Shown here in pieces: positions 4,091-7,795 of a stretch of DNA of 7,893 bases; the first letter of the stretch is position 1, and every line of letters begins with the position of its first letter. Below the pieces are notes generated by a model. The model ran no database searches. It worked only from the letters and a program-made list of their open reading frames with translations, and was not told the origin of the DNA. The stretch comes from a virus (taxonomy: Duplodnaviria > Heunggongvirae > Uroviricota > Caudoviricetes). The position numbers and the translations under genes are program-made. Where the stretch lies: IMG/VR virus record IMGVR_UViG_2693429536_000010; one strand, given 5' to 3'.

Positions 4091-4130
4091 TAAGCCATCA
4101 GCAGGACGCACTGACCACCATTGAAGGTGA

Positions 4131-4161
4131 GGCTCTTAAAAATTAAGCCCTGAAGAAGGGC
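4131..4161 (+). promoter_or_regulatory. nutL N-utilisation site (boxA + boxB)
   Basis: boxA-like GGCTCTTAA (4131-4139; first base G where lambda has C, from memory) followed by boxB hairpin GCCCTGAAGAAGGGC (4147-4161). Confidence 0.85.
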
Positions 4162-4318
4162 AGCATTCAAAGCAGAAGGCTTTGGTGTGTGTGATACGAA
4201 ACGAAGCATTGGCCGGAAGTGCGAATCCGGATTAGCTGCCAATGTGCCATTGCGGGGTGTTTTCGTTCAGGACTACGACTCCCACACACAACCAAAGCTA
4301 ACTGACAGGAGAATCCAG

Positions 4319-4642
4319 ATGGATGCACAAACACGCCGCCGCGAACGTCGCGCAGAGAAACAGGCTCAATGGAAAGCAGCAAATCCCCTGTTGGTTGGGG
4401 TAAGCGCTAAACCAGTTAACCGCCCTATTCTCTCGCTGAATCGCAAACCGAAATCACGAGTAGAAAGCGCACTGAATCCGATAGACCTTACGGTGCTGGC
4501 TGAATACCACGAACAGATTGAAAGCAACCTGCAACGTATTGAGCGCAAGAATCATCGAGTTTGGTATAGCAAGCCAGGTGAGTTCGGTATAACTTGTCAA
4601 GGAAGACAAAAGGTTAAAGGGGAATCCATTCCATTGGCATGA
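4319..4642 (+). CDS. N: Antitermination protein N (107 aa), lambda type
   Basis: MDAQTRRRERRAEKQAQWKAANPLLVGVSAKPVNRPILSLNRKPKSRVESALNPIDLTVLAEYHEQIESNLQRIERKNHRVWYSKPGEFGITCQGRQKVKGESIPLA recognised as lambda N with an Arg-rich N-terminal motif. Start at the internal Met; the ORF-track extension to 4187 would cross nutL. Confidence 0.95.
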   Translation: MDAQTRRRERRAEKQAQWKAANPLLVGVSAKPVNRPILSLNRKPKSRVESALNPIDLTVLAEYHEQIESNLQRIERKNHRVWYSKPGEFGITCQGRQKVKGESIPLA

Positions 4643-4650
4643 GGTACGTA

Positions 4651-5520
4651 ATGAAGAAGATTGATTACAAGTCCATACCAAAACCAATAGACTCAGCATC
4701 AGAGCGAAAAAAACACAAAAAAGAGGCTGAAAAATTAGCAAATTATATCAGTTTTATTAGAAACAATGCTCACGGCGATGGCGACAAGAAGTTGCTTTCA
4801 GATGCTCGGACCCAAGCGTTCGGTATACTTCGTAAGCAGATGCAATATCGTCTTCATCCTGGCTACATAATTGAAATTCGCCCTACTGAAAGACAATTGT
4901 TCTTATTAAACTCTGTCTTTGACTTTGTAAACGTAGTTGGAGATCTTATCGACAGGTCTGTAGATAAGGATCCTGATACAAATAGTTTTCTTCTAACAAA
5001 TAAAGAATACTTATATGGTAAATTCGGTATAAACGGATGGCAAAAATATGTACGCTTCTTACGTGCATTCGTTGATGCGTATAAAAATTCCGACATGATT
5101 TATACATATTTGCCTGGTGGTGATAATTGTACGCTTTCGGCAGACAATAGAATATTCATACCTGTACTTGGTCTTGGGCTGATTAATGCAGTAAATGAAA
5201 AAGATGTTATAATTGTTAAGCAGTGGCGAAAATATGAGGGATATAGATATCTGCCATGCTTTGATATATTAAAAATACAGAATAAATTCTATGTAAAAAT
5301 TAAATATAAAGAAGATATTTTCTTCCTCAGAAAAAACAAAGATCTTTTACAAGAACTTTCTGGTACAATAGATGTCATCTTAGGTTCTAGGTTTATAAAA
5401 GAACTGAAAGAAAGCAGGTCTTTCTCTCGTGTAGAGATAAGCGAGTCAGAGTTATGGGGTATATCAAATAATCCTGTAAACCACGCTCACCAACGAAACC
5501 CAAACAAAAAGTGGTCATAA
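4651..5520 (+). CDS. Hypothetical protein (289 aa), AT-rich accessory gene in the lambda sieB-ral position
   Basis: Long ORF MKKIDYKSIPKPIDSASERKKHKKEAEKLANYISF... with a GAGG Shine-Dalgarno (4641-4644) 6 nt before the ATG at 4651. An alternative ATG at 4639 overlaps the N stop. Very Lys/Asn/Ile/Tyr-rich; spot counts of 60-bp lines give roughly 17-40% GC against about 50% in flanking phage genes. No known family recognised. Confidence 0.7.
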   Translation: MKKIDYKSIPKPIDSASERKKHKKEAEKLANYISFIRNNAHGDGDKKLLSDARTQAFGILRKQMQYRLHPGYIIEIRPTERQLFLLNSVFDFVNVVGDLIDRSVDKDPDTNSFLLTNKEYLYGKFGINGWQKYVRFLRAFVDAYKNSDMIYTYLPGGDNCTLSADNRIFIPVLGLGLINAVNEKDVIIVKQWRKYEGYRYLPCFDILKIQNKFYVKIKYKEDIFFLRKNKDLLQELSGTIDVILGSRFIKELKESRSFSRVEISESELWGISNNPVNHAHQRNPNKKWS

Positions 5521-5662
5521 CCCGCTCAGGCGGATTTCATTTTCACGCAAACAACAGAATAAACACAGCGCTGTGTATTCATTCCAACGAGTGAATACAC
5601 GGAGCAATGTCGCTCGTAACTAAACAGGAGCCGACTTGTTCTGATTATTGGAAATCTTCTTT

Positions 5663-5690
5663 GCCCTCCAAGATGAGGGCGATTTTTTAT
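5663..5690 (+). terminator. Rho-independent terminator downstream of the AT-rich gene, upstream of ea10
   Basis: GCCCTC (5663-5668), loop caagat, GAGGGC (5675-5680), followed by GATTTTTTAT (5681-5690). Confidence 0.65.
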
Positions 5691-5708
5691 CTGTGAGGAT
5701 ATGAACAG

Positions 5709-6077
5709 ATGTCAAACATCAAAAAATACATCATTGATTACGACTGGAAAGCATCAATAGAAATTGAAATCGACCATGACGTAATGACAGAGGAAAAACT
5801 TCACCAGATTAATAATTTCTGGTCAGACTCTGAATACCGACTCAATAAACACGGCTCTGTATTAAATGCTGTATTAATCATGCTGGCGCAACATGCTCTG
5901 CTTATAGCAATTTCAAGCGACTTAAATGCATATGGTGTTGTGTGTGAGTTCGACTGGAATGATGGAAATGGTCAGGAAGGATGGCCTCCAATGGATGGTA
6001 GTGAAGGAATAAGAATTACCGATATCGATACATCAGAAATATTTGATTCAGATGATATGACTATCAAGGCCGCCTGA
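5709..6077 (+). CDS. ea10: Ea10 protein (122 aa)
   Basis: 122-aa acidic ORF MSNIKKYIIDYDWKASIEIEIDHDVMTEEKLHQINNFWSDSEYRLNKHGS... in the lambda ea10 position; GAGGAT Shine-Dalgarno 8 nt upstream. The 72-bp gap to cIII matches the lambda spacing as I recall it. Confidence 0.8.
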   Translation: MSNIKKYIIDYDWKASIEIEIDHDVMTEEKLHQINNFWSDSEYRLNKHGSVLNAVLIMLAQHALLIAISSDLNAYGVVCEFDWNDGNGQEGWPPMDGSEGIRITDIDTSEIFDSDDMTIKAA

Positions 6078-7491: not shown

Positions 7492-7795
7492 CACCGGACA
7501 TTATCCTGCAGCGTACCGGAATCGACGTGAGAGCTGTCGAACAGGGGGATGATGCGTGGCACAAATTACGGCTCGGCGTCATCACCGCTTCAGAAGTTCA
7601 CAATGTGATAGCAAAACCCCGCTCCGGAAAGAAATGGCCTGACATGAAAATGTCCTACTTCCACACCCTGCTTGCCGAGGTTTGCACCGGTGTGGCTCCG
7701 GAAGTTAACGCTAAGGCGCTGGCCTGGGGAATACAGTACGAGAACGACGCCAGAGCCCTCTTTGAGTTCACTTCCGGCGTGAATGTTACTGAATC
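7488..7795 (+). pseudogene. exo: exo (lambda exonuclease / Red-alpha), truncated; only the N-terminal ~103 codons are lambda-like
   Basis: Start overlaps the bet stop (ATGA). Translation matches lambda Exo through ...[12 protein letters not shown] (codon 103), then diverges at nt 7796 into 23 unrelated codons ending at the stop at 7866-7868. Lambda Exo is about 226 aa. Confidence 0.8.

Follow-up and report, generated by a model that had tools for sequence, protein, structure and literature searches.

A long gene directly behind N in phage 434

The window analysed here, a stretch of 7,893 nucleotides, represents phage 434 (100% identity to OL657226.1) and is oriented so that the leftward pL operon reads on the plus strand. 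P, O, cII and cro follow one another on the minus strand. The plus strand carries, in this order, cI(434), hex, oL/pL, nutL, N, a long gene whose product ends in the tail of the HK022 Nun protein (below, the long gene and the long protein), ea10, cIII, kil, gam, bet and exo. The following features surround the long gene:

4147-4161, plus strand: nutL boxB GCCCTGAAGAAGGGC, lambda type; exact match to the lambda nutL boxB, with a nutL annotation in OL657226.
4319-4642, plus strand: N antiterminator gene, 107 aa, lambda-type Arg-rich motif (Pfam N36, E 1.8e-26; GenBank CDS).
4576-5548, unstranded: non-lambda block in the place of sieB, orf28, ral and the 3' end of N (in a blastn comparison of the two phages, only 4101-4575 and 5549-5900 align).
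4641-4645, plus strand: ribosome-binding site TGAGGTACGTAATG, overlapping the N stop codon (GAGG at 4641-4644; annotated RBS).
4651-5520, plus strand: coding sequence of the long protein, 289 aa plus stop (GenBank CDS; PHROG 12139, E 1.5e-205; dN/dS 0.23 against a 98%-identical allele).
5522-5533, plus strand: weak hairpin right behind the stop codon, -6.9 kcal/mol; homologues have a canonical terminator here.
5661-5690, plus strand: intrinsic terminator, -12.9 kcal/mol with U6 (terminator scan and fold; annotated terminator), in DNA common to lambda.

The long gene begins 8 nt behind the N stop codon (TGA, 4640-4642), which its GAGG overlaps, just as a first-pass annotation of this DNA had described for a 289-aa open reading frame. 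The frame is listed as 4639-5520 (293 aa), and the GenBank coding sequence begins at the ATG at 4651 (289 aa). We favour the start at 4651 because in L005, whose protein is 68% identical, the ATG equivalent to 4639 runs at once into an in-frame TAA. The same tight junction with N recurs in L005, L014 and L015. No terminator was predicted between N and the long gene, which agrees with the earlier view that it forms part of the early pL/N transcript. A scan for sigma-70-like promoters found none upstream of the long gene, and fewer sites than in shuffled controls.

Homology to lambda stops at 4575 and returns at 5549, so the intervening block replaces the lambda N 3' end together with sieB, orf28 and ral, a replacement that had also been proposed earlier. 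Like sieB and ral, the long gene is an accessory, non-essential gene between N and ea10, a place associated with exclusion and restriction alleviation; it is unrelated to them in sequence and fold, and lambda sieB lies on the opposite strand. The breakpoint between lambda and 434 falls inside N (4575-4642), so that the last ~22 codons of 434 N, which we take to encode its RNAP-binding end, share the non-lambda block with the long gene. In L005, too, a long gene goes together with this N C-terminus.

At 34.6% GC the long gene lies below the window as a whole (46.2%) and below N (48.9%) and bet (51.8%; N, gam and bet range from 49 to 52%), and its 200-nt minimum of 26% lies at 5201-5400. The composition is thus far from uniform and fits the suggested origin from a foreign, low-GC source. 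The sharp contrast claimed for both neighbours holds for N and fails for ea10, which has a GC content of only 38% and not about 50%. As had been noted, the protein (pI 9.5) is rich in Lys, Asn, Ile and Tyr, which make up 32% of its residues versus 18% in Bet, and it has no hydrophobic or membrane-like stretch.

Behind the stop codon, L003, L005 and L014 carry canonical terminators, with G+C-rich stems of 7-8 bp followed by a U-run and abutting the stop codon; in both 434 and HK022 the hairpin at this place is degenerate. From 5549 on, the 434 spacer is ordinary lambda DNA. It contains the canonical intrinsic terminator that had been predicted downstream, 140 nt past the gene, which we believe to be lambda tL2a. 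Between the long gene and ea10 the lambda-shared DNA also encodes a very stable RNA hairpin without a U-run (5568-5605, -21.4 kcal/mol, z = -7).

The long protein ends in the arrest peptide of HK022 Nun

Two features at the C-terminus of the long protein stand out in alignments:

5410-5448, plus strand: pre-tail motif ESRSFSRVEISES, aa 254-266, common to remote relatives (S.SY.RVDF).
5476-5517, plus strand: Nun arrest tail VNHAHQRNPNKKWS, aa 276-289, identical to HK022 Nun residues 96-109 (phmmer against PDB 6ALG chain N; PHROG 5632).

The GenBank product name, "Nun C-terminal peptide-containing protein", flags this peptide; the first-pass annotation, which left the affinity of the protein unknown, had missed it. 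The match to PHROG 5632 covers the last 20 residues only, and PHROG 12139 is matched by the protein end to end.

In the cryo-EM structure of Nun on RNA polymerase, residues 87-109 alone are ordered, and they hold every known arrest determinant (PMC5386594). N97, H98, H100, R102, K106, K107 and W108 each contact RNAP, RNA or DNA, or impair Nun when substituted; R102 pairs with the C-terminal carboxylate, and K106, K107 and W108 lie between the hybrid and the downstream duplex (PMC5386594). The equivalents of these residues are invariant in every long homologue. The tail positions that do vary are, in Nun numbering, 101, 103, 104 and 105, and N103 had served as a non-contacting control in the structural work (PMC5386594). 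Conservation does not extend to the upstream-DNA contacts H93 and R94 (NN in 434); this counts against a Nun-type reading.

Mean identity to the homologues, which are 36-68% identical overall, is 78% in the tail, 53% in the linker helix, 46% in the core and 34% in the N-terminal hairpin. The tail codons of the homologues show free synonymous turnover and their synonymous sites are saturated (pS 0.81-0.86 and pN 0.19-0.45 in distant pairs). This conservation is not an artefact of the search, because L003, L005, L014 and L016 were retrieved by whole-protein similarity. At the level of sequence comparison, these data show purifying selection on the tail across a small family of ~290-aa proteins. 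The DNA of 434 and HK022 is ~95% identical from codon 276 to ~85 nt beyond the stop codon, so the tail junction has also been a site of recent exchange. In HK022 (L002, 7540-7730), an IS903 is inserted ~85 nt downstream of nun, where the homology between 434 and lambda carries on, and the HK022 RefSeq record leaves nun without annotation.

Compared as whole proteins, HK022 Nun (P18683) and the long protein share the C-terminal 14 residues, including those implicated in arrest, and a faint likeness ahead of the tail (F.R..E.I.E). Their genes share a place in the pL operon next to or instead of N, a terminator after the stop codon and the homologous DNA that follows it. In contrast, Nun has 109 aa and the 434 protein 289, its boxB-binding motif and central region being replaced by a folded module of ~260 aa, and phage 434 itself has a lambda-type N and nut. 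We found no Nun-type boxB-binding Arg-rich motif in the N-terminus of the long protein (2 Arg and 9 Lys in the first 45 residues). A basic helix is present there, which is hypervariable and has no homology to the Arg-rich motifs of Nun or N. By eye, ERKKHKKEAEKLANY near the N-terminus resembles the lambda-N-like motif RRRERRAEKQAQW; we rejected it as an Arg-rich motif since it is Lys-rich, unconserved in homologues and predicted to pack in a helical hairpin.

The body of the long protein has a predicted TnpB-like fold

Searching 1.8 billion representatives with a profile retrieved 24 proteins. AF2 with a 23-sequence alignment gave a model with pLDDT 82 and pTM 0.72 (residues 10-225 above 88), which superseded one made from 4 sequences (pLDDT 42). 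The model delimits three features ahead of the tail:

4696-4845, plus strand: N-terminal basic helical hairpin, aa 16-65 (AF2 helices 16-38 and 43-65, pLDDT 87-96).
4858-5325, plus strand: core domain, aa ~70-225, with a predicted TnpB/Cas12-like WED-REC fold without RuvC.
5344-5427, plus strand: long connecting helix, aa 232-259 (AF2 secondary structure, lower confidence).

The hairpin is the least conserved region and is Lys/Arg-rich in all homologues. A strand (71-77), helices (80-145) and a beta-rich unit with one helix (152-219) follow it, and then the connecting helix (232-259). Residues 260-289 are disordered in the model, as expected for a peptide that binds in extended form. The order and lengths of these elements fit the path from WED strand 1 through REC into the WED barrel of TnpB. 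The predicted model contains both the WED, an OB-like barrel split by REC, and a helical REC. Foldseek searches against the PDB and against viral models returned the same TnpB/Cas12-type families at lower scores.

RuvC (D-E-D) and the TNB/zinc-finger insertion are absent from the long protein, in which one helix and the tail follow the WED-like barrel, and Pfam OrfB_IS605, OrfB_Zn_ribbon and HTH_OrfB matched 0 of the 23 members. When the family was aligned with an ISDra2-like N-terminal profile by hhalign, 28 columns matched in the correct register (residues 71-98 to TnpB 6-33; E 0.0037, probability 9%), and a search of PDB sequences with the family alignment gave nothing relevant. With so marginal an alignment we make no claim of sequence homology to TnpB, and the fold assignment draws on one AF2 model from 23 sequences. 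We therefore claim, from the model, that the body has a TnpB-like WED-REC fold, and not that the protein is a member of the TnpB family.

Relative to TnpB and the type V Cas12 proteins (ISDra2 TnpB, 8H1J; RdCas12n, 9UDI), the 434 protein also has a shorter REC part, ~66 aa versus ~107 aa. An unsystematic look at the flanks revealed no transposon ends, and an Rfam scan for a guide-RNA-like element gave no match. Nuclease-dead TnpB-like proteins known as TldR act as RNA-guided repressors; they still have a guide RNA and a RuvC scaffold, though an inactivated one, and prevent initiation through DNA binding. The likeness would be that both derive from TnpB and, on mobile elements or prophages, came to control transcription. 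The difference is that the 434 protein lacks the entire RuvC region and its presumed effector is an RNAP-invading peptide.

The long gene is an allele of the nun locus beside N

Among 5,426 complete E. coli genomes, 83 carry the long gene at full length (identity at least 97.7%), and a database cluster identical to its product has 1,042 members. These counts, the PHROG family and the GenBank name overturn its earlier description as an orphan. The suggested searches of defence models and Pfam gave nothing: Pfam, NCBIfam and PADLOC scans with the long protein and 23 family members found no match, and PADLOC-DB 2.0 had 0 families at E<=1 for the long protein, which therefore stands outside every catalogued defence family. 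In the literature we did not find a description of it, and the 434 genome announcement is silent on the gene. Both lambda and the lambda imm434 hybrid OM418626 are without it. If classical work used hybrids of this kind, as we assume, its absence there would explain the neglect of the gene. In P0008, a database protein of 96 aa, the 23 N-terminal residues of Bet are followed by the 73 C-terminal residues of a 434-type protein; it is presumably a deletion derivative in some prophage. The record MW057783.1 ('Campylobacter phage CJLB-4', 48.4 kb) matches the N-ea10 region with the same coverage as lambda does (93.6% identity) and annotates sieB, N, ral and ea10; a lambda contaminant may have entered the deposited sequence.

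Searching IMG/VR with the Nun tail as a pattern retrieved 109 genes, whose products show just two architectures: a short one of 79-117 aa, and the ~290-aa long form (~25 of the 109). The short proteins have at least 8 different Arg-rich N-termini, including the HK022 type and a lambda-N-like type, MDAQARRREKRKEKQEEWK. Nearly all the Nun-tail genes lie 1-5 nt behind, or overlap, an N-type gene with an Arg-rich motif unlike the one in the Nun; short Nuns 1-5 nt behind such an N occur among L018-L125 (for example L038, L027, L037, L058, L096 and L099). From these sequences the N-Nun pair looks like a widespread two-gene cassette, of which we found no description in the literature. In L087 (3257-3591, minus strand), two Nun-tail genes of 88 and 79 aa stand in tandem, the second without an obvious Arg-rich motif.

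The long form shares this arrangement. It starts 1-22 nt after N in L005, L014, L015, L106 and L032, and a lambda-type N precedes it in 434, L005, L014/L015 and L106; the lambda boxB itself is found in 434, L005 and L014. In L051 and L032 it lies behind other N types, in L016 behind a remnant of the N C-terminus, and in L003, a phage without N, directly after an HK022-like cI and putL, which is the position of nun in HK022. Because it shares the slot with short nun, the long gene is best regarded as a nun allele, presumably expressed jointly with N as the first unit behind the pL promoter; in 434, too, it occupies the promoter-proximal position beside N.

The pairing also bears on the target. 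The HK022-type Nun, which is specific for lambda boxB, was seen only beside 21-type or other non-lambda N genes, or in HK022-like phages without N. Lambda-type N, on the other hand, comes with the long form or, in L096, with a short Nun of a different Arg-rich motif. We infer that the target of the long form is probably something other than a lambda-type nut.

A candidate Nun-type arrest factor with a new targeting module

To our knowledge, Nun has been treated for 35 years as a one-off HK022 protein that excludes lambda. We propose, with moderate confidence and on the strength of sequence comparison and a structural model, that the product of the long gene is an immediate-early transcription-arrest factor of the Nun type with a new targeting module. 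Nun in excess arrests any elongation complex, and its Arg-rich motif and nut serve only to tether it (PMC4124055). The point at which the Nun chain emerges from the polymerase is close to the beta' zipper, the RNA exit and the upstream duplex (PMC5386594). A nucleic-acid-binding module at that point could hold nascent RNA or upstream DNA, and the most economical reading would make residues 1-260 an alternative tether for a tail that acts as in Nun. The protein would be made together with N as an immediate-early pL product. The WED-REC module, possibly with the variable basic N-terminal helix, would then tether it to certain elongation complexes by way of their nucleic acids, for example through a structure in the nascent RNA or a site in the DNA of a competing phage, and the outcome would be exclusion of the rival and not of 434 itself. 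The tail census, in which the Nun tail is combined with many tethers, supports such modularity.

An exclusion role is plausible and, among the readings we considered, the best supported by the genes and their arrangement. The earlier suggestion of a phage defence or exclusion effector is to that extent upheld by the accessory-gene slot; the mechanism indicated is Nun-type arrest of RNA polymerase and not a generic defence effector, and nothing points to the anti-restriction function that had also been suggested. Two points speak against this reading. HK022 Nun acts from the prophage, and the long gene, having no recognisable promoter of its own, may lack the lysogen expression that classical exclusion needs. 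In addition, 434 itself uses lambda-type nut sites, so that a leaky tail would be harmful to its own phage.

The protein could instead be a regulator of 434, a delayed brake or timer that acts on the phage's own N-modified or unmodified pL/pR complexes and is no anti-phage weapon. We consider this unlikely, even though the gene is always translationally coupled to N, is expressed only when pL fires and was co-inherited with the C-terminal codons of N in 434 and L005; moreover, HK022 Nun mutants have no lytic or lysogenic defect, so that the biology of the class is incompletely known (PMC4124055). The Arg-rich motifs of the short Nuns in the same slot differ from those of the neighbouring N proteins, which fits non-self targeting, and the gene is dispensable insofar as lambda and lambda imm434 do without it. 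A general shut-off of the host, in which the tail, produced abundantly from pL, indiscriminately arrests the polymerase of the host and N-modified phage complexes are spared, strikes us as quite improbable: untargeted arrest would not need a conserved, well-folded domain of ~260 aa, and the L003 phage has no N to shield its own complexes. In its favour, Nun in excess arrests complexes without nut and is toxic when overexpressed (PMC4124055; PMC5386594).

Little probability also attaches, in our estimate, to the tail being a passenger that was acquired by recombination at the 3' end of nun, with the real activity residing in the WED-REC part (for example nucleic-acid binding in anti-defence or gene regulation) and independent of RNAP arrest. 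The near-identity to HK022 DNA from codon 276 onwards does indicate recent exchange, and the remote relatives described below combine the same core with a different tail. However, the Nun tail is the best-kept segment among homologues that are saturated with changes at the DNA level, and the long-form homologues with a C-terminus all have it (25 IMG/VR genes and 6 database clusters). The WED-REC fold, which is the guide- and target-binding half of TnpB/Cas12, raises the further idea of a guide RNA, bound by the module, that would bring the tail to transcripts or DNA complementary to it. We regard this as very unlikely, since RuvC, which provides much of the omega-RNA-binding surface of TnpB, is missing; in L003, L005 and L014 the terminator abuts the stop codon and leaves no room for a downstream guide; in 434 only the weak hairpin and then the 140-nt spacer follow; Rfam finds nothing; and the remote relative P0026 travels as a one-gene integron cassette of ~870 bp.

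With a tethered, Nun-type arrest factor as the preferred reading, the locus points to the arrest peptide of Nun as a portable effector, carried on interchangeable targeting modules and routinely paired with N across lambdoid prophages. One of these modules is predicted to fold like the half of TnpB/Cas12 that binds guide and target. Should the 434 protein indeed arrest transcription, it would represent a second, structurally distinct way to aim the same polymerase block, offer a handle on the immediate-early conflict of competing prophages and provide a natural case of a TnpB-type domain reused without its nuclease.

Remote relatives share the core and carry a different tail

The core is also found in a remote group of proteins of 210-330 aa that are 17-26% identical to the long protein and share residues ~73-230 and the pre-tail motif S.SY.RVDF. 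Their C-terminus is a different conserved basic tail, GGLPSLGK(R/K)R. PHROG 12139 matched 14 of 17 remote members (best E 2e-13). Tail variants of the form GG(L/A)(P/I).(L/.)GK(R/K)R occur in P0010-P0027 and in L126 (1399-2269), L127 and L128. The long protein and these relatives, including the integron-cassette proteins with GGLPSLGK(R/K)R, might form an unrecognised class in which a RuvC-less, TnpB-derived recognition module delivers a polymerase-invading C-terminal peptide, and might serve as sequence-programmable, possibly RNA-guided arrest factors in conflicts between mobile elements. We put this forward as speculation and think it improbable.

The P0026 cassette is of the integron type: an identical unit is found in three contexts with its edges at G|TTAG core sites, and an attC-like site lies at L126 2213-2268. 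Remote relatives are often neighbours of toxin-antitoxin genes (L012, L013 and L126). In L012, a Dechloromonas contig, a 48-nt direct repeat (5712-5759 and 7555-7602, 88% identical) stands upstream of both a remote relative and a gene for a ClpX-like ATPase, and may be attC-related or a shared control region.
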